This document shows, in pieces, positions 25,792 through 47,038 of a stretch of 64,000 nucleotides of DNA (positions are counted from its first letter, which is position 1; every line of letters starts with the position of its first letter). The translations under genes were made by a program, and so were the position numbers. Origin of the DNA: Chloroflexia bacterium (GTDB taxonomy: Bacteria > Chloroflexota > Chloroflexia > QHBQ01 > JAICKM01); contig JBPCPV010000015.1 of assembly GCA_050998805.1 (NCBI GenBank), positions 145,423 to 209,422 of the forward strand. Reading direction: 5' to 3'. Below the pieces are notes generated by a model. That model ran no database searches, had not been told where the DNA came from, and worked only from the letters and a program-made list of their open reading frames with translations.

Positions 25792-26160
25792 CTATAAGGC
25801 CAATGTATACCTTAGCGCCGTATCAATTCCGTCCATTGGTAGACGCCCGATCACGCGCTCGACTGCAACCTCGGCAACAGTCGCCAGATTGTCGGACATC
25901 ACCAAAGAGTCCATGAGTAGTCCGGATCGCTGGCCCGTCGGCGTGGAGCGGATAACGGCTACCCGGCTCGGATGCGGGATACGAGACATCTTGCTGGTGA
26001 TCATCGCGTCGATCAGTTGTGGAACCCCTGTCTGGAGATTATCGGCTTGGACAACCAATGCCGGTCGTGTCTTTGCTGTGCGTAGGTTCGAGTGCGGGAA
26101 CAGCGCTAGCACGATATCGCCGCGCTTAAGTAGTAGCTTTGGCGGCATCGTAGTCGTCAT
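25792..26160 (-). CDS. Type II toxin, MazF/PemK family
   Basis: MTTTMPPKLLLKRGDIVLALFPHSNLRTAKTRPALVVQADN... (PemK-like KRGDIV...RPALVV core). Start uncertain between 26160 and 26148. Confidence 0.7.
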   Translation of the reverse strand: MTTTMPPKLLLKRGDIVLALFPHSNLRTAKTRPALVVQADNLQTGVPQLIDAMITSKMSRIPHPSRVAVIRSTPTGQRSGLLMDSLVMSDNLATVAEVAVERVIGRLPMDGIDTALRYTLAL

Positions 26161-26383
26161 AAATATCCATCTCGGGGCTGTCCCAATCCTCGGAGAACGA
26201 TTGCAAGCGAGCACGTAACTCGGCTGCCTGGGCTTCGTCTATGTTACGCGCCCTAAGATCGATCCTTCCTGGGCTTGCGTTCAGGAAGGTCACGATGACA
26301 CGGGTCTCGTCACGCACATCGCCGGGAGCTTCGGCCAATTCTATTTTGCCGTTCCGATACACACCCTCAACGCTTCTGATCAT
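26126..26383 (-). CDS. Putative antitoxin (small DNA-binding protein) upstream of MazF
   Basis: 85 aa, MIRSVEGVYRNGKIELAEAP...RVIVTFL... (antitoxin-family fold pattern). Its 3' end overlaps the toxin start by 23-35 nt. Confidence 0.45.
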   Translation of the reverse strand: MIRSVEGVYRNGKIELAEAPGDVRDETRVIVTFLNASPGRIDLRARNIDEAQAAELRARLQSFSEDWDSPEMDIYDDYDAAKATT

Positions 26384-26394
26384 TACAGTTGCTC

Positions 26395-27402
26395 CTATCT
26401 CCTGCCCGCCCCATCTCGGTCCTTCGCCATGCTGAACGCATTCACGAAGCTGTCCACCGCCGCCAACTTCGAGCTGCTCCAGCCCGATATGCTCACCACG
26501 ATCAGCGGCCGTCCGCCGACCGACAGGAACAGGCTGCGCTTCACCCAGAAGAAGTAGCTCGCCAGCGCCAGCAGGCCGAGGAGGGCTAACGGCGCGGCCA
26601 CCAGCAGCGGCGGCGCGTGGTAGAGGTCGCCGAGGCCGAGTTCGGCGGACGGCTGGGTGATGCCCGTGTATGCGGCCAGCGCCGCCAGCCCAATGCCGAG
26701 CAGCCCGAGGATCAGCATCAGTCCGCCGGAGCGTTCAGTCACGGTGCCCACTGCGTCCACGTCCTTTAGGAACGCCGCACGCAATATCGCCGGCGCGTAC
26801 AGAATCGTCCGCCTGTTGGTCAGGTAGAGCGCGCCCAACTGCATGATCACTTCCTCTCCGGCGAGAAGCACGAGCGCGCCCGACGGCGGGTTTTGGACTC
26901 TGGACTGCGGGGCCTGGATTGGCGGTTGCGGGCTTGGCGTCGGCGTAAGAACCTCGACGGGCATGACCTGCGCGACGGGCATGGCCGGGGTGATGACATA
27001 GGAGTGTGCCGGCTCGGCGGACGCAGGGAACATCTGCGCCGTTGTCGGGAAGACCTGCGGGCTGGCCGCCATCGGCGCAGGCGCGGCCGGCGCAGGTGCT
27101 GTGGCAAACTCCCCTCCCCACACAGGGGATGGGTCGGCGGAGAGGTAGGTTGGCCTTTGCTCTGTTGGTGGCACAGTCTCCCCTTCCTCTACGTGGGAAG
27201 GGTCGGCAGCGAGATCGGGGGAGGGGTCGGCGGGCTGTGTGTTGAGCGAACCCGCAGGGCGCACCGGGATCGGCGGCTGCTCGGCGTGGGTGTTGCCGTT
27301 GTCGGACTGATATGTGGGAGTGCCGGGGAGCACAATCGCGCGTGCCGGTAGCCCAGGTGTGGTAGCCTGGTTTTCCGCTTCCTCATTCGGGTTCGAGACC
27401 AT
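26395..27402 (-). CDS. Membrane protein with Pro-rich N-terminal region and bacterial PH (bPH_2/YdbT-like) domain
   Basis: Low-complexity Pro/Ala-rich N-terminal half. ...GEEVIMQLGALYLTNRRTILYAP... is followed by two TM helices. Confidence 0.45.
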   Translation of the reverse strand: MVSNPNEEAENQATTPGLPARAIVLPGTPTYQSDNGNTHAEQPPIPVRPAGSLNTQPADPSPDLAADPSHVEEGETVPPTEQRPTYLSADPSPVWGGEFATAPAPAAPAPMAASPQVFPTTAQMFPASAEPAHSYVITPAMPVAQVMPVEVLTPTPSPQPPIQAPQSRVQNPPSGALVLLAGEEVIMQLGALYLTNRRTILYAPAILRAAFLKDVDAVGTVTERSGGLMLILGLLGIGLAALAAYTGITQPSAELGLGDLYHAPPLLVAAPLALLGLLALASYFFWVKRSLFLSVGGRPLIVVSISGWSSSKLAAVDSFVNAFSMAKDRDGAGRR

Positions 27403-27497
27403 CGGTTGTGACCTTCCTCAGAGAATATTCGTAGTGAGAATGTTGTATACTAGGCATTATACCCGCCGGTTTGGAACGCTGTCAACCGGCGTCAATT

Positions 27498-27541: not shown

Positions 27542-28636
27542 TTGGGCGCTGTAGAGGAGCTTGCCGGGGTGATACGCGAGAGGATCCGGGCTGCCGGCGA
27601 GCGGATCACTTTCGCCGAATACATGGACCTGGCACTCTACCACCCGACCTACGGCTACTATAGCGCCGGTAGGGTCGCGCTCGGCCGCGGCGGCGACTTC
27701 ACGACCTCGCCTGAGGTGGACCCGGCCTTTGGCGCGCTGCTCGCCGAGTTCGCGCGCCGGTGCGATGAGAAGTTGGGCCATCCCGCGCGCTTTCTGCTGG
27801 CCGAGCATGGCGGCGGCTCCGGGCGGCTGATGCGTGACATGCTCGACGCGCTCCGCGAGACCCAGCCTGCCCTCTACTCCCGCGCCGACGCCGTGTTGGT
27901 GGAGCGAAGCGAGGCACTGCGCTCCCGCCAGCAGGCGTTGCTCGCGGAGGCGGGCCACGACCGAGCACGCTGGGCCGACGCGGCTGTAGGCACCGGCCTA
28001 GTCCTCAGCAACGAGTTGCTTGATGCCTTCGCTGTCCACCGGCTGCTCGCCGAAGAGGACGGTCTGCGGGAGATATACGTTGAGGTGGACGCCGACGGAC
28101 GCTTCGTGGAGACCATCGGCCCGCCCTCCGACCCGGCTCTCGCGGCCTATTTCGAGGACGCGACGGTGACGCCTCCCGACCGGCCATGCGAGGTGAACCT
28201 GGCGGCCCCTGCCTGGCTGCGCTCGGTTGCCTCCGACCTGGAGCGGGGCTTCGTGCTGACGATAGACTACGGCGATAGCGCGGCCCGCCTCTACAGCGAT
28301 CTGCGGCCCGAAGGCACCCTCTTGTGTTATAGTAATGGGCGGGTGACGGACGACCCCTACGGCGCGCCCGGTACACAGGATATGACCGCGCATGTGGACT
28401 TCACGACGCTCGAGCGTGTAGGCCGCGCCGCAGGGCTGCAAACAGTCGTAGCCACACGCCAGATGGAGTTTTTGGTGGACCTCGGCATCGGCGAACGGAT
28501 CGCCGCCCTTAGCGCCACGCCGCCCGAGTCGCGCGAGGCAGCCCGCGAGATGCTCGCCCAGCGCGCCCACCTCTTCCGCCTGATCGACCCCGACGGCCTG
28601 GGCCGCTTCCATGTGCTTGTGATGCTGAAATGCTGA
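27542..28636 (+). CDS. MidA/NDUFAF7-family SAM-dependent methyltransferase (DUF185)
   Basis: ...ITFAEYMDLALYHPTYGYYSAGRVALGRGGDFTTSPEV...LLAEHGGGSGRLMRD... matches the MidA signature. Confidence 0.75.
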   Translation: MGAVEELAGVIRERIRAAGERITFAEYMDLALYHPTYGYYSAGRVALGRGGDFTTSPEVDPAFGALLAEFARRCDEKLGHPARFLLAEHGGGSGRLMRDMLDALRETQPALYSRADAVLVERSEALRSRQQALLAEAGHDRARWADAAVGTGLVLSNELLDAFAVHRLLAEEDGLREIYVEVDADGRFVETIGPPSDPALAAYFEDATVTPPDRPCEVNLAAPAWLRSVASDLERGFVLTIDYGDSAARLYSDLRPEGTLLCYSNGRVTDDPYGAPGTQDMTAHVDFTTLERVGRAAGLQTVVATRQMEFLVDLGIGERIAALSATPPESREAAREMLAQRAHLFRLIDPDGLGRFHVLVMLKC

Positions 28637-29484
28637 CTGCCACGACAAAACGAGGAAACTGGTGCGGTGCCTGCGGCGAGCGGCTGGCGGGGCGCGAGAT
28701 GGTGCGCCTGCGGCTTGGCGGAGATGAGCCGGAGGCTCGCTACTACTGTGCGAGCTGCGCCGACGGCCTGCTGAGGTGCGCGGGCTGCGGCTGCCGGCTC
28801 GCGGAGCTTCCCGGCAGCCTCTTCGCGCCCGCCGGCCAGACGCGGCGGCTCTACTGCGTGGCCTGCTGGGACCGGCCGCACTGCAACGCCTGCGGCCATC
28901 CGGTCGGCGAGGTCTCATACCGCCGCGCCGATGGTCGCGTCTTCTGCGAGTCGTGCCACGCCACCGCCGTCTACGACCCGACCGAGGCGGTGCGGCTCTA
29001 TGAGCGCGTGAAGGCGACGGCAGCCGGGGCGCTGGGGCTGACGCTGAACGTCGGCGCGGTGCTGCACATGGTGAACCGTGAGCAGATCACCGCGCTGCGG
29101 AACAGCACACCAGGCGCGGGGCCGATGCCGGACGGCGGGGAGGAAGGCGCGGACCTGGTCGGCCTGTTCGTCCACGGCTCGCGCTTGCGCTCGATCTATG
29201 TCGAGTACGGCCTGCCGCGCATCTTCTTCTGTGAGGTCTTAGCGCACGAATACGCCCACGCCTGGCAGGCCGAGAACGCCCCTCTGCTCTCCGACCCTGA
29301 GCTGCGGGAGGGCTTCGCAGAGTGGGTCGCGTACAAAGTGGTTGAGAGTTGGGGCTGCCGCCTGCGCCTGGAGCGCTTCCGTGGGCGGCAGGATGTTTAC
29401 GGCGCCGGCCTGCGCCGCCTCCTCACTTGGGAGGCGGCGGAGGGCGTGGACGGCCTACTGGATCGCATTCGGCGAGAACGTTAA
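28630..29484 (+). CDS. DA1-like zinc peptidase (HExxH) with N-terminal Cys-rich (LIM-like/zinc-ribbon) fingers
   Basis: N-terminal CGACGE...YYCASCADGLLRCAGCGC...LYCVACWDRPHCNACGH...FCESCH. C-terminal ...FFCEVLAHEYAHAWQ... (HEXXH followed by AW, as in DA1-like peptidases). Its ATG overlaps the MidA stop. Confidence 0.6.
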   Translation: MLTATTKRGNWCGACGERLAGREMVRLRLGGDEPEARYYCASCADGLLRCAGCGCRLAELPGSLFAPAGQTRRLYCVACWDRPHCNACGHPVGEVSYRRADGRVFCESCHATAVYDPTEAVRLYERVKATAAGALGLTLNVGAVLHMVNREQITALRNSTPGAGPMPDGGEEGADLVGLFVHGSRLRSIYVEYGLPRIFFCEVLAHEYAHAWQAENAPLLSDPELREGFAEWVAYKVVESWGCRLRLERFRGRQDVYGAGLRRLLTWEAAEGVDGLLDRIRRER

Positions 29485-29499
29485 ATCGAGGGGGTAAAT

Positions 29500-30879
29500 A
29501 TGGCGAACGAAGTTTCCCTGCAATGCCGGCTGAACCTGAGCGCGGTGCCTGCGTCGAGCGAGCCGCGCCTCGTCTACCTAATGATAGACATCCGCCCCGG
29601 CGAGGGGCTGGGCACACGCTCCGCACCGGTGAACCTCGGCATCGTGCTCGACATCAGCGAGTCGATGCGCCTGCCGGTGCTGAGTCAGGCGCAGTTTCAG
29701 GAGTTGGCCCGTCTCGGCCATGTGCGCGAGATAATCGCCGACGGCATCCCTGTCTGGACCTTCCCGCATATCCCCCTCGAGATCAGGCGGGCCGCGCCCT
29801 CGAACCTCGACGCGGTGAAGCAAGCCCTCCACGAGGCGGTGACACATCTGGAACCCCAGGACCGATTTTCCCTAGTCGCCTTCGCGGGTCGGGCCGAGGT
29901 CTTGCTGCACTCCCTCACCGGCAGCGAGCGCGACCGCATACCCGAAGCCGTGGAGCGGCTCGACGCCGTGCGCCTTGGCGACGACACCGACATGCAGACC
30001 GGGCTATATGCCGGCCTCAGCGAGCTACGGAGCGGCGAGGTCGGCGGCATGATCAGTCGGATGGTCGTGCTCACCGACGGCTTCACCCGCAACCCCGAGG
30101 CGGTGGCCGCCTTCGCAAAACAGGCACAGCGGGCCGGCGTCGCGGTCAGCACCGTGGGCGTCGGCACCGATTTCAATGAGCAGCTGCTGGTCACCATGTC
30201 GGACGAGAGCCAGGGCAACGCATATCTGGCGCGCGAGCCGCGCGAGATCCCTCCGGCCTTCGCCAAAGAGCTAGAGGCTGTGCAGTCCATCACCGTGCGC
30301 CACATTGTCGCCAGTGTGCGACTGAGCGCCGGAGTCGAGCTACGCCGCGCCCACCGCATCCGCCCCGCGATCAGCACCCTCCGCGACGTGCCCATCCAGG
30401 ACCGCACCGTGGTCTTCGACCTCGGCGACCTGGAGACCGACAGGCCGCCCGCGCTCCTCCTCGAGCTGATCGTGCCCCCACGCAGCCCCGGCATGTTCCG
30501 CATCGCCGGCGTCACACTCGCCTATGACGTGCCTGGTGCCCCCGATACCACGGGCGCGCAGTCCCGCTGCGATGCCCTCCTCGACTACAGCACTGCCGGT
30601 ATGGGCGCGTTCGACCCCCAGGTTATGAACACGGTGGAAAAGGTCAGCGCGTTCAGCCTCCAGACCCGCGCGCTCGACGACGCCGCCCTCGGCAACGTCC
30701 AGGGCGCGACCACCAAGCTCCGCTCTGCGGCGACCCGCCTTCTCGCCCTCGGCGAACCCGACCTGGCGAACGCCGCCGAGCAGGAGGCCCAGAAGCTGGA
30801 GCAAGGCGGCCAACTCTCCGCCGAAGGCGCGAAGAAGCTCCGCTATGAGACCCGCCGCCTCACCCAGCGCCTAGAGTAA
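29500..30879 (+). CDS. von Willebrand factor type A (VWA) domain protein
   Basis: ...VNLGIVLDISESMRL... (MIDAS DxSxS) ...LVAFAGRAEVL...MVVLTDGF.... The C-terminal ~200 aa are uncharacterised. RBS GAGGGGG upstream. Confidence 0.8.
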   Translation: MANEVSLQCRLNLSAVPASSEPRLVYLMIDIRPGEGLGTRSAPVNLGIVLDISESMRLPVLSQAQFQELARLGHVREIIADGIPVWTFPHIPLEIRRAAPSNLDAVKQALHEAVTHLEPQDRFSLVAFAGRAEVLLHSLTGSERDRIPEAVERLDAVRLGDDTDMQTGLYAGLSELRSGEVGGMISRMVVLTDGFTRNPEAVAAFAKQAQRAGVAVSTVGVGTDFNEQLLVTMSDESQGNAYLAREPREIPPAFAKELEAVQSITVRHIVASVRLSAGVELRRAHRIRPAISTLRDVPIQDRTVVFDLGDLETDRPPALLLELIVPPRSPGMFRIAGVTLAYDVPGAPDTTGAQSRCDALLDYSTAGMGAFDPQVMNTVEKVSAFSLQTRALDDAALGNVQGATTKLRSAATRLLALGEPDLANAAEQEAQKLEQGGQLSAEGAKKLRYETRRLTQRLE

Positions 30880-30890
30880 AGGAGAAACCG

Positions 30891-32462
30891 ATGACAGACG
30901 ACATGCTCAACAGCGTGATACATGCGCCCGACTTCCCGCCCGGCCTCGACTGGCTGAACACGCCCGACCACAGGCCGCTCACCCTCGGCGACCTCAAGGG
31001 CAAGCTGGTGCTGCTCGACTTCTGGACCTATGGCTGAATCAACTGCATCCACATCCTGCCGCAGTTGCGGCGGCTCGAAGAAAAGTACCCCGACCGGCTC
31101 GCGGTCGTCGGCGTCCACGCCGGCAAGTACACCGCCGAGCGGTCCACGTCCAACATCCGCGATGCCGTGCTGCGGCTCGGGATCGACCACCCTGTCGTTA
31201 ACGACCGCCAGTTTCGCATCTGGAAGGCTTACGCGGTGAGCGCCTGGCCGACGGTCGTGATAGTGGGGCCAAACGGCTACTACCTCGGCACGAACCCCGG
31301 CGAGATCACATTCGAGGATTTCGACCCGGTCATCGCCTCTGCGCTCGCCCACTTTGAGCAGGCCGGGATGATCAGCGCTGCCCCCCTGCCGCTCCACCCG
31401 GAGCACTTGGACGAGCCTGAACGCCCGCTCCGCTACCCCGGTAAGGTGCTGGCTGTGGCCGGAAGCGACGGCACGCCTGACCGCCTCTTCATCGCCGACA
31501 GCGACCACGCCCGCGTGCTCGGGGCGCGCCTCTCGGTGGACGGTCGCGCCGCCGAAGTCGAGTGGGTCGCCGGCTCCGGCGCTCCGGGCGCAGACGACGG
31601 GCCGTTCGAGCAGGCCGGCTTCAACCGCCCCCAGGGGATGTCGCTCGTCGCGGACACTCTCTACATCGCCGACAGCGAAAACCATACCCTGCGCGCGCTA
31701 GACACCGGCAAACGGACCGTGCGGACTATCGCGGGCACAGGGCAGATCGGCAGGTTCGGCGCGGCGGGCGGCGCGGCCCTGAGCACCCCGCTCAACTCAC
31801 CGTGGGATCTCGCCTGGACCGGCAACCGGCTCTACATCGCCATGGCCGGCTACCACCAGCTCTGGGTCTACGACCCCGCCGGGACCGTCGCGCCCTTCGC
31901 CGGCACCGGCCGCGAGGAGCTGGCCGATGGCCGGCTCTGGTCGCCGAGCGTCCTCAAGGCGCGCGTCCTGGACGACCTGCGGGGCTACGCGAGCCTCGCC
32001 CAGCCCACCGGCATCGTCGCCGACGGCGAGCGGCTCTACTTCACCTGTAGCGAAGCCCAGGCTGTGCGCTCTGTCAGCACGGGTGGCGAGAACAATGTAA
32101 GCACGTTCGTCGGCACCGGGCTGTTCGACTTCGGTGACAAAGACGGGCGTGGCGATGCCGTGCGCCTGCAACACCCCTTCGGCCTCGCTTTTCACGAGGG
32201 GCGGCTGCTCGTGGCCGACACCTACAACAGCAAGATCAAGCGGCTCGACCCGGCGACGCGGGAGGCGGCATCCTGGCTCGGCAACGGCGAGCGCGGCCTG
32301 GTGGACGGCCCCGGCGCTGATGCGCGCTTCAACGAGCCGGAGGGCCTGAGTGTGGCCGGAAATCGGCTCTATATCGCCGACACGAACAACCACGCGATCC
32401 GCGTCGTGGACCTCACAGACCCGGCCGGCAACGTCTCTACCCTCGAGCTGCGTGGCCTCTAG
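30891..32462 (+). CDS. Thioredoxin-like domain + NHL-repeat protein with an in-frame TGA (31035-31037) at the first Cys position of the CxxC motif; candidate selenoprotein, or else a pseudogene
   Basis: Strong SD (AAAGGAGAAACCG) then ATG at 30891. It encodes MTDDMLNSVIHAPDFPPGLDWLNTPDHRPLTLGDLKGKLVLLDFWTYG-TGA-INCIHILPQLRRLEEKYPDRLAVVGVHAGK..., continuing in the same frame into the track ORF 31065-32462 (NHL repeats). Reading TGA as U restores the redoxin motif WTYGUINC. Confidence 0.5.
31056..31073 (+). promoter_or_regulatory. Stem-loop 18 nt downstream of the in-frame UGA (possible bacterial SECIS-like element)
   Basis: ctgccgca-gt-tgcggcgg: 8 bp stem including one G-U pair, with G and U in the apical loop. 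Confidence 0.25.
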
Positions 32463-45970: not shown

Positions 45971-46935
45971 TTGATAGTCCCTCCTGTGCCAGCTAGATAG
46001 ATCGCGTGTCTCGCCTGCTCTTTGCGGCCTATTATAGCACGCCGGGGCGTTTATTGGTAGAAGGCGGCGGATTCTTACTCCGTGCGTCGAGCGCAGAGCG
46101 ACTCTCCCACAGACGATAGCTTTGCTTCGAGCTACGGCTCTCTGAGCTTGGGTATCTGAAGAACCGTGCCTGAGAACTGATAAAGTAGGAAAAACGCGGG
46201 TATAGGCACGGGCCGGGCATAATTATCAGATTTCGTGCCTGGCGTGAGCTGATATTTCGCGGCTCTCTATCAGTAGGAAGTGGTTAGTGGTTAGTGGTTG
46301 GTAGTCAGGAGGTTGTCCCGGCGATCCACGAGTGAAGCCGTGTCTTGCAGCTGTAGTTGGCGGCAGTAAGTGAATGAGTAACGTTTTGTGTATATGCTGA
46401 CGATAAGATTGTGTAAATAGAAGAAGACGGCACTCGATGTTACAGAGCCATCGGGGGGGAGGACTTTGCTCGCTATTTTTACCCTCTCACTTGTAATATC
46501 CATTTCAGGGGGCATTTACTGCCAGATTTTGGGGCTTGGGGAGGGAATCGGGGCAAAGATACTCCGAAAGATCTAGACGATTGCGGATTTCGGAGTGCGG
46601 ATTGCGGATTGAGGGCGGCGAGGTGGGCGGATCTCGAAGCTCAACGCGGGTTGGCGTTGTTGCTGTGAAAGTGGGTCTTGTGAACGGATATGAGGGCAAG
46701 AGTGGCCTGACGTAGCAGTTTTGGTATCGGAATCGGGTCGATTTTACTTCAAGAAGCAAGTATGACGGTCGTTGAGACGGATGTTGGTATGTAACAACAG
46801 GAATGGCGCGTCTGGGTGAGCTGGGGTTGTCGGGGAGGAGGCTTGTGGGGTTGGGTGGGGTGGAGATACGAGTAATTACCGGGCCTTAGAGCTTGCATCC
46901 ACTTAGGGGTTTTGTTATAATAGTCGTGTCCACTT
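45971..46935. repeat. Repeat-rich non-coding region (~0.95 kb) upstream of tRNA-Ser
   Basis: Contains (GTGGTTA)-type heptamers (46279-46303) and the ATTGCGG/GGAGTGC heptamers (46578-46614). Segments 46470-46534 and 46083-46120 are reverse-complement matches to 2996-3066 and 2463-2490. Confidence 0.75.
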
Positions 46936-47026
46936 GGGGAGATGCCAGAGTGGTCGAATGGGGCCGCCTGCTAAGCGGTTAAGCGACCTTAAAGTTGCTT
47001 CTAGGGTTCGAATCCCTATCTCCCCG
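46936..47026 (+). tRNA. tRNA-Ser (anticodon GCU), long variable arm
   Basis: Acceptor stem GGGGAGA/TCTCCCC, discriminator G. Anticodon loop cUGCUaa. Long extra arm. T-loop GGTTCGAATCC. CCA not encoded. Confidence 0.85.
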
Positions 47027-47038
47027 CCCTTTTAACAA

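Follow-up and report, generated by a model that had tools for sequence, protein, structure and literature searches.

A DA1-like peptidase gene paired with an ArnB-like VWA gene in Chloroflexota, and a MidA gene upstream of the pair in a single clade

Three tightly linked genes on the + strand, at positions 27542-30879 of a 64-kb stretch of DNA from a Chloroflexia bacterium (contig JBPCPV010000015.1; hereafter the window, meaning the whole stretch), encode a MidA/NDUFAF7-type methyltransferase, a DA1-like zinc-finger peptidase, and a protein with a VWA domain. An initial annotation, made from the sequence alone, had assigned all three domains correctly, as seen in a Pfam profile search, and had read the genes as a small module of three, to be refuted if they were not co-conserved in other genomes. 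In comparison to related loci, the coupling of peptidase and VWA protein is real and conserved, whereas the adjacency of MidA is limited to a narrow clade (4 of 80 loci and one further locus, L165), outside which the three-gene module fails that test. The conserved unit is thus the pair of DA1-type peptidase and VWA protein only, and in other Chloroflexota this pair sits inside a cluster of kinase, phosphatase, and FHA genes. The features of the locus are listed below, with residues numbered within each protein.

27542-28636, + strand: gene for a MidA/NDUFAF7-type S-adenosylmethionine methyltransferase of 364 amino acids (aa); open reading frame (ORF) with a TTG start after GGAGGT; first gene of the operon, clade-specific
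28630-28636, + strand: overlap of the MidA stop and the DA1-like start (aaATGcTGA), read from the sequence; translational coupling
28630-29484, + strand: gene for a DA1-like zinc-finger gluzincin peptidase of 284 aa; ORF, Pfam PF12315
28663-28758, + strand: extra N-terminal zinc module of the peptidase, C12xxC15...C40xxC43; missing from the short Chloroflexales forms, which start after this module
28777-28959, + strand: LIM-like double zinc module, C50, C53, C76, C79, C85, C88, C106, C109 (+H110); the eight Cys are invariant in 65 sequences
29245-29310, + strand: catalytic motif H206-E207-x-x-H210...E227 (HEYAH-x16-EGFAEW); H206, E207, H210, E227, and E231 do not vary among 65 sequences
29500-30879, + strand: gene for an ArnB-like VWA protein of 459 aa; ORF, Pfam VWA, AlphaFold2 (AF2) model with Foldseek
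29650-29664, + strand: MIDAS (metal ion-dependent adhesion site), D51-x-S53-x-S55, completed by T163 and D193; columns invariant in 59 orthologs
30616-30876, + strand: C-terminal four-helix bundle with T389, T404, T412, T451, and T455, each with Leu at +3; AF2 helices 373-451

The ORF coordinates agree with those of the initial annotation, and the ATGCTGA overlap and the two short gaps with ribosome-binding sites that it described are all present in the sequence. The DA1-like and VWA genes are separated by 15 nt that contain GAGGGGG ahead of the VWA ATG, and the VWA gene is separated from the following thioredoxin-NHL (Trx-NHL) gene by 11 nt that contain AGGAGA ahead of the ATG at 30891.

The DA1-like peptidase and the VWA protein

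The DA1-like protein matches PF12315 with a score of 33.9 bits against a cut-off of 25, aligned to profile positions 75-134 of 213 around HExxH. The assignment of its HExxH domain to the DA1-like family therefore passes the gathering threshold, with partial coverage of the profile. The same profile is matched by 61 of 65 relatives at E<=1e-3, and Peptidase_M1 is matched by 40 of the 65 family members. The sequence LAHEYAHAW lies at residues 204-212, and the active site is predicted to be of the gluzincin type (HExxH-x16-E), placed behind the double zinc module. The catalytic part of the family profile can be aligned with M1 aminopeptidase N around the active site of the latter. The AF2 model has a predicted local distance difference test (pLDDT) score of 89 and a predicted template modelling (pTM) score of 0.84. 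Its Foldseek neighbours in the PDB are zincins only (MATCAP, M61, SPRTN, ACE2, and PPEP), all matched weakly, and no close solved structure was found there.

Six CxxC motifs are present in the protein (starting at C12, C40, C50, C76, C85, and C106), of which the first two make up a clade-specific module and the other four do not vary within the family; Anaerolineae relatives carry eight. The total is thus six motifs and not the four CxxC-type pairs of the initial annotation. Its term LIM-like is borne out at the level of the family, since Pfam LIM (PF00412) is matched by 44 of 65 relatives at E<=1e-3 and the family profile matches solved LIM domains over the cysteine module (PINCH, E=6e-5; CRP1/2; range 6e-5 to 1e-3). 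In contrast, the window protein itself scores 17.5 bits for Pfam LIM, under the gathering threshold of 22.9, and the spacer between its zinc sites is 5 residues (C79 to C85), compared to two in a canonical LIM. Judged by its sequence, the zinc module is best described as LIM-like and not as a canonical LIM domain.

The DA1-like family comprises 3386 representatives at 50% identity (E<=1e-3), and many members combine a signal or membrane anchor with four to six LIM-like repeats. The exact peptidase is listed at NCBI as 'protein DA1' and the VWA protein as 'vWA domain-containing protein', both from a Chloroflexia metagenome-assembled genome. NCBIfam contains no specific family for MidA or the DA1-like protein, and its matches to the VWA protein lie far below threshold. 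DA1 homologues that carry four CxxC/H pairs are mentioned for Chloroflexi in Dong et al. 2017, with reference to Burroughs et al. 2011, and the C-terminal half of plant DA1 resembles Roseiflexus proteins (PMC5322733). LIM-like DA1 peptidases were thus already known from bacteria, and to this extent the earlier statement that the locus is not a described system does not hold; it may hold for the pairing of peptidase and VWA protein. In the searchable full-text literature, no paper was found that joins DA1-like/LIM peptidases with vWA/FHA proteins, and the likeliest source, Burroughs et al. 2011, lies outside that search. Known families thus account for each of the proteins, and neighbourhoods of the kinase/PP2C/FHA/vWA kind are known as well, but the regular presence of a DA1-type LIM-peptidase beside an ArnB-type VWA protein is a new element as far as the searchable literature extends.

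Plant DA1/DAR proteins (PF12315) share with the window protein a gluzincin HExxH...E site that follows four CxxC/H pairs, with HEMMHx15EE in DA1 and HEYAH-x16-EGFAE in the window protein. The latter differs in that it has no Pfam UIM match, a LIM match below threshold, an extra N-terminal zinc module, and 60 of 213 profile positions aligned. Additionally, the conserved partner of the window family is the VWA protein. No ubiquitin machinery was seen, and therefore activation by ubiquitylation, as in plant DA1, is unlikely.

The 459-aa protein matches Pfam VWA with E=1.1e-17, and its ortholog group is slow-evolving, with 45-83% identity and a constant length of ~459 aa. Its MIDAS, already recognised in the initial annotation, is complete. 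The AF2 model (pLDDT 89.8) consists of N-terminal beta strands, a vWA domain (44-262), a beta-sandwich (264-364), and four C-terminal helices (373-451). The best Foldseek match, over the whole chain, is 4fx5 from Catenulispora acidiphila (E=2.7e-26, template modelling (TM) scores 0.72/0.77), the vWA protein Caci_2163 solved by structural genomics. This protein shares all three domains and is also matched in sequence by the VWA family profile over query positions 102-421, but it is actinobacterial and has 16% identity. ArnB in the ArnAB complex 8s05 is likewise matched over the whole chain (E=3e-23), as is the ArnB paralog 5a8j, with TM scores of 0.6-0.77 for the ArnB-type three-part match. The family profile also matches ArnB in sequence, with E=3e-13. 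According to the model, the VWA protein is built like ArnB in three parts: a vWA domain, its MIDAS complete, splits a beta-sandwich, and four helices form a bundle at the C-terminus.

A conserved insertion of ~45 aa follows immediately after the MIDAS DxSxS loop, at residues 56-100 (window 29665-29800), with near-complete invariance in several columns. In the AF2 model it forms two short helices and a beta-hairpin, and the Pfam VWA match restarts only at residue 100. The insertion may serve as a lid, a surface for docking, or a site of cleavage.

The five bundle threonines lie in the motifs T389-RAL, T404-QKL, T412-RLL, T451-RRL, and T455-QRL, with the Thr conserved at 85-100% and the Leu at +3 at 80-100%. 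Among FHA domains, a preference for phosphothreonine followed by Leu at the third position (pThr-x-x-Leu) is known, and the T-x-x-L spacing of all five fits this preference. Three of these Thr are followed by an invariant Arg (T389-R390, T412-R413, and T451-R452; window 30664-30669, 30733-30738, and 30850-30855). Neither the DA1-like nor the VWA protein was seen by eye to have an obvious signal peptide or transmembrane segment, and both appear to be cytoplasmic.

In Sulfolobus acidocaldarius, ArnA and ArnB form a motility-repression module with the kinases ArnC/ArnD and the phosphatase PP2A. ArnB consists of a beta-sandwich split by a vWA domain and a regulatory four-helix bundle, in which Thr phosphorylated by ArnC is bound by the FHA domain of ArnA, while the zinc finger of ArnA docks on the beta-sandwich and bundle (PMC12852372, PMC6509490). 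The three-part fold, the intact MIDAS, and the Thr-rich C-terminal four-helix bundle are all shared by the window VWA protein. This likeness to ArnB, together with the wider Ser/Thr kinase, PP2C, and FHA context described below, was missed in the initial annotation. A comparable order of zinc finger, vWA 'trunk', beta-sandwich, and helical domain is found in the Sec23/Sec24 core of coat protein complex II (Foldseek E ~1e-14 to 1e-10), and the resemblance of ArnAB to Sec23/24 has been noted (PMC12852372). In contrast to Sec23/Sec24, the window pair has no gelsolin domain or Sar1 GTPase, and its zinc modules are on the separate peptidase protein.

Gene neighbourhoods in Chloroflexota

A comparison was made of 80 genome loci with DA1-like relatives, all from Chloroflexota. 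The resulting neighbour counts are lower bounds, as the simple ORF caller missed or misplaced some genes (for instance, DA1 or VWA in L010, L015, L016, and L018), and tblastn coordinates obtained with the window proteins served as a cross-check on the ORF-based counts. In 23 of the 56 loci with enough downstream sequence, DA1 is followed on its own strand by a VWA ortholog at a distance of no more than 400 nt. Over the whole set of 80, a VWA ortholog comes directly after DA1 in roughly 25-30 loci. These pairs range from Chloroflexia to Anaerolineae, at DA1 identities of 33-41% (lowest 33%). The genes upstream of the pair vary by clade, with at least six contexts that include MidA, rplA (ribosomal protein L1), an ECF sigma/anti-sigma pair, FHA, and PP2C. 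Since the order of DA1 and VWA is constant while the upstream gene varies, the adjacency is therefore likely to reflect functional linkage and not inherited gene order.

By clustering, the recurrent neighbours are a Ser/Thr kinase with a zinc ribbon, a zinc-ribbon protein with a terminal FHA domain, and a PP2C phosphatase. Flanks of 5 kb or more on either side are available for 36 loci; among these, VWA was found at 18, the kinase at 16, FHA at 18, PP2C at 10, and MidA at 1. Kinase, FHA, or PP2C genes accompany 16 of the 18 full-flank loci with VWA, compared to 3 of the 18 without it. Similarly, when three VWA orthologs were taken as starting points for reverse look-ups, a kinase/FHA-type cluster with a DA1-like gene was found each time; one of these DA1-like proteins (295 aa) has no Pfam annotation, and was assigned to the family by hhalign with 100% probability. 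At L161, the DA1-like gene is within the same kinase/FHA/VWA cluster, and linked signalling genes are also present in L163-L165.

One Chloroflexia clade (L163/L164, 3008-5540, - strand; L007, L008, L012, L014, and L020) has two genes in divergent orientation right upstream of the DA1-VWA-kinase-FHA genes, one for an ECF sigma factor and the other for an anti-sigma factor, which is long and of zf-HC2 type. This anti-sigma factor is a possible candidate substrate of the peptidase in that clade.

The first gene of the window operon matches Pfam Methyltransf_28 (PF02636) over its full length (E=1.7e-61, profile positions 2-246 of 249). The score of this match is high. MidA/NDUFAF7 is the arginine methyltransferase of the complex I subunit NDUFS2; no nuo genes were noticed adjoining the window gene, and linkage to a peptidase-VWA pair is limited to one Chloroflexia clade. 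By tblastn, MidA lies upstream of DA1 in 4 of the 80 loci (L001-L004), which are the closest relatives (DA1 identity 57-70%). A fifth case of the order MidA-DA1-VWA is L165, which was reached by reverse look-up from a VWA ortholog with 74% identity. It shares with the window the order FabF-FabF ... membrane protein - MidA - DA1 - VWA. The proline-rich membrane protein gene of this series (window 26395-27402, - strand) also adjoins MidA in L001, L002, and probably L165.

It was originally proposed that the three genes form a single protein-modification/proteolysis module. In such a module, MidA would methylate arginines of the peptidase, of the VWA protein, or of a substrate of the two. Overlaps of the MidA stop and the DA1 start (GTGA/ATGA) recur in L001, L003, and L004, and therefore co-expression can be argued for the window clade. 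Additionally, the three genes persist together in L003 and L004 despite different flanking genes, and their order is kept in L165. The invariant Arg after T389, T412, and T451 would offer sites for methylation, and immediately upstream of P0392, a DA1-like gene that is unrelated, there is likewise a methyltransferase, of DOT1-like type. Against these points, MidA is found at DA1 loci of a single clade, and at only one of the 36 full-flank loci. Of 80 metagenomic MidA relatives with 36-47% identity, none has a DA1 or VWA neighbour, and the wider synteny within the clade (FabF-FabF ... membrane protein - MidA) means that shared ancestry can explain the adjacency. A three-part module is thus an unlikely explanation. 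The gene is narrowly distributed, the synteny within the clade extends beyond it, and other MidA relatives lack the link, so that an incidental operon neighbour is the simpler reading: MidA is most simply a lineage-specific and recent addition in one small clade, not a core part of the module, and on present evidence its link to the pair is most likely incidental. If functional, the link would hint for the first time that this methyltransferase family has a substrate outside mitochondria.

Two loci of DA1-like multi-LIM proteins have neighbours of a related kind. The locus P0392 (JGI 3300075153), from outside Chloroflexota, has the DOT1-like methyltransferase directly upstream of the multi-LIM protein and a protein kinase nearby, and at L166 (8385-10307) a multi-LIM gene is followed by a CHASE2-SpoIIE (PP2C-type) phosphatase and alpha-2-macroglobulin. 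These two loci hint that methyltransferase or phospho-signalling neighbours recur for the DA1-like peptidase family.

A possible proteolytic partner of an Arn-like phospho-switch

It is judged probable, although not strongly so, that an ArnA/ArnB-like phospho-switch has the DA1-like peptidase as its proteolytic partner. Peptidase and VWA protein would be the functional unit, with MidA gained upstream in the window clade and the linked kinase/FHA genes lost in the lineage of the window itself. Like the Arn system, the loci of the relatives contain a zinc-finger FHA protein, Ser/Thr kinases, and phosphatase genes. By analogy, the cluster of kinase, FHA, and PP2C genes with the pair may be viewed as the bacterial counterpart of the archaeal ArnA/ArnB/ArnC/phosphatase switch.

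In such a switch, whether the T-x-x-L sites in the helical bundle of the VWA protein are phosphorylated would depend on the kinase and phosphatase, and the FHA protein would read this state. The peptidase could dock on the VWA protein via its zinc modules, as the zinc finger of ArnA does on ArnB, and its cleavage target would then be a protein caught at the MIDAS face or else a partner of the peptidase itself. A reversible phospho-signal would thereby be converted to irreversible proteolysis. Plant DA1 and its regulators offer a comparison, in that the ligases that activate DA1 are themselves cleaved by it (PMC5322733).

Docking via the zinc modules is suggested by the precedent of the ArnA zinc finger on ArnB and by the co-occurrence of the extra N-terminal module with an adjacent VWA gene. 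VWA lies directly downstream in 19 of 23 loci for forms with at least six CxxC motifs, compared to 2 of 31 for four-CxxC forms (Fisher p=8e-9), although this split follows clade boundaries and represents neither independent events nor a phylogeny-corrected count.

Several differences from the Arn system are evident. The Chloroflexota module is bacterial, has ~16% identity to ArnB, and has PP2C instead of PP2A, and it includes a metallopeptidase, which is not known in the Arn system. Archaella are absent, and therefore the output must differ from that of the Arn system. If the proposal is correct, regulated proteolysis would be a concrete output for a widespread kinase/phosphatase/FHA/vWA module, whose downstream mechanism in its best-studied, archaeal form has been called enigmatic (PMC12852372). 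It would also tie the zinc finger and vWA architecture of Sec23/24 type to a protease, and provide a simple bacterial model, useful to plant biologists, for control of the peptidase by the DA1 LIM-like region.

In addition to the clade-bound distribution of the zinc modules, several observations weigh against a phospho-switch with the peptidase as partner. The T-x-x-L motifs lie in amphipathic helices and could be partly structural. The short DA1 form of Chloroflexales (Roseiflexus, Chloroflexus, and Oscillochloris) has no VWA gene within 6 kb. Similarly, multi-LIM DA1-like proteins outside Chloroflexota had no VWA neighbour in four look-ups, and therefore VWA is not a universal partner of the DA1-like family. 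The overlap conserved between MidA and DA1 leaves a small chance of a real functional link that would include the methyltransferase. Finally, in contrast to the Arn system, no FHA, kinase, or phosphatase gene lies near the window pair, and homologs of the kinase, FHA, and PP2C genes of the relatives are found nowhere in the 64-kb window. The DA1-VWA pair may therefore work without them. In the close relatives L002 and L165, the kinase directly follows VWA, and in L165 the zinc-ribbon/FHA protein is next, so the window lineage is likely to have swapped these genes for others. Their place in the window lineage is taken by genes for two membrane proteins, one or both of PMT_2 glycosyltransferase type, and by the Trx-NHL gene.

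The pair might instead resemble animal CLCA, a secreted protein in which a self-cleaving zincin is followed by a Cys-rich module and a VWA domain. The peptidase would then cleave the VWA protein itself, in the post-MIDAS insertion or the bundle linker, and so free or unmask the vWA domain with no phospho-signalling involved. The order of zincin, Cys-rich module, VWA, and beta-domain mirrors that of CLCA, and VWA orthologs are labelled 'Ca-activated chloride channel homolog' at JGI. The intact pair in a window without kinase, FHA, and PP2C genes and the conserved ~45-residue insertion beside the MIDAS motif would also fit. However, only the order of domain types is shared, as the window domains are split over two genes and have no match to the CLCA sequence family; the Pfam hits of the two proteins at E<=0.01 do not include the N-terminal hydrolase family of CLCA. 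Furthermore, ArnB and 4fx5 are matched along the full length of the VWA protein, no CLCA is among the top 50 Foldseek matches listed, and no candidate cleavage site was found. An arrangement of this type is therefore also improbable, and self-processing is possible as a variant of the phospho-switch model, one without family-level support.

A bolder form of the phospho-switch model, which must be considered speculative and is given little chance, holds that bacterial DA1 relatives are the missing proteolytic output of a Sec23/24-like switch of ArnA/ArnB type. The zinc modules would dock on the beta-sandwich and bundle, Thr phosphorylation would gate cleavage, and MidA would methylate the Arg beside T389, T412, and T451 as a second input, in effect a methyl/phospho switch.

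It is similarly doubtful that the two genes are co-transcribed with no direct interplay of their products, their adjacency being due to co-regulation or inherited gene order only. The short Chloroflexales forms and the DA1-like proteins of other phyla do exist without an adjacent VWA gene, and the mechanistic links proposed above are all inferred. Nevertheless, the same-strand adjacency of DA1 and VWA extends across two classes and at least six upstream contexts, and the placement of the L161 DA1-like gene within the same signalling cluster also argues against mere co-transcription.

A vWA-centred anti-phage or conflict system was rejected as highly improbable: vWA proteins with kinase/PP2C partners do occur in conflict systems (Kaur et al. 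2020, PMC7159879), but PADLOC gave no match for any of the three proteins, the adjacent MoxR AAA+ and VMAP/iSTAND components of MoxR-vWA ternary systems and effector domains are found neither among the conserved neighbours nor in the window flanks, the flanking genes are housekeeping genes (fabG/fabF in the window, rplK-rplA at other loci), and the VWA protein is highly conserved and constant in length, not rapidly diversifying.

Other features of the window

The Trx-NHL gene that follows the VWA gene (window 30891-32462, + strand) has an in-frame TGA at 31035-31037, in place of the first Cys of the thioredoxin-fold CxxC (FWTYG-TGA-INC), and its Pfam Thioredoxin_8 match resumes right past this codon. 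The TGA could encode selenocysteine (UxxC), or could reflect a pseudogene or a sequencing error. A hairpin 3' of the TGA does not exceed shuffled sequence in stability (z = -0.25), no Rfam match to a selenocysteine insertion sequence was found for it, and there is no tRNA-Sec in the window.

Upstream of the operon, a perfect sigma-70 consensus promoter (TTGACA-18-TATAAT) is present at window 27456-27485 on the - strand, where it faces the divergent gene for the proline-rich membrane protein. The + strand ahead of MidA has no match comparable to the sigma-70 consensus. Between the fabF pair and the membrane protein gene lie a PemK/MazF-type toxin gene and an overlapping 85-aa ORF, probably encoding the antitoxin (window 25792-26383, - strand). 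The syntenic locus L165 has a response-regulator-like gene in the position of the toxin gene. Lastly, a scan of the whole window with Rfam at gathering thresholds returned zero matches, the tRNA family included, and ARAGORN placed a 95-nt tRNA-Ser(GCT) at window 46935-47029 on the + strand.

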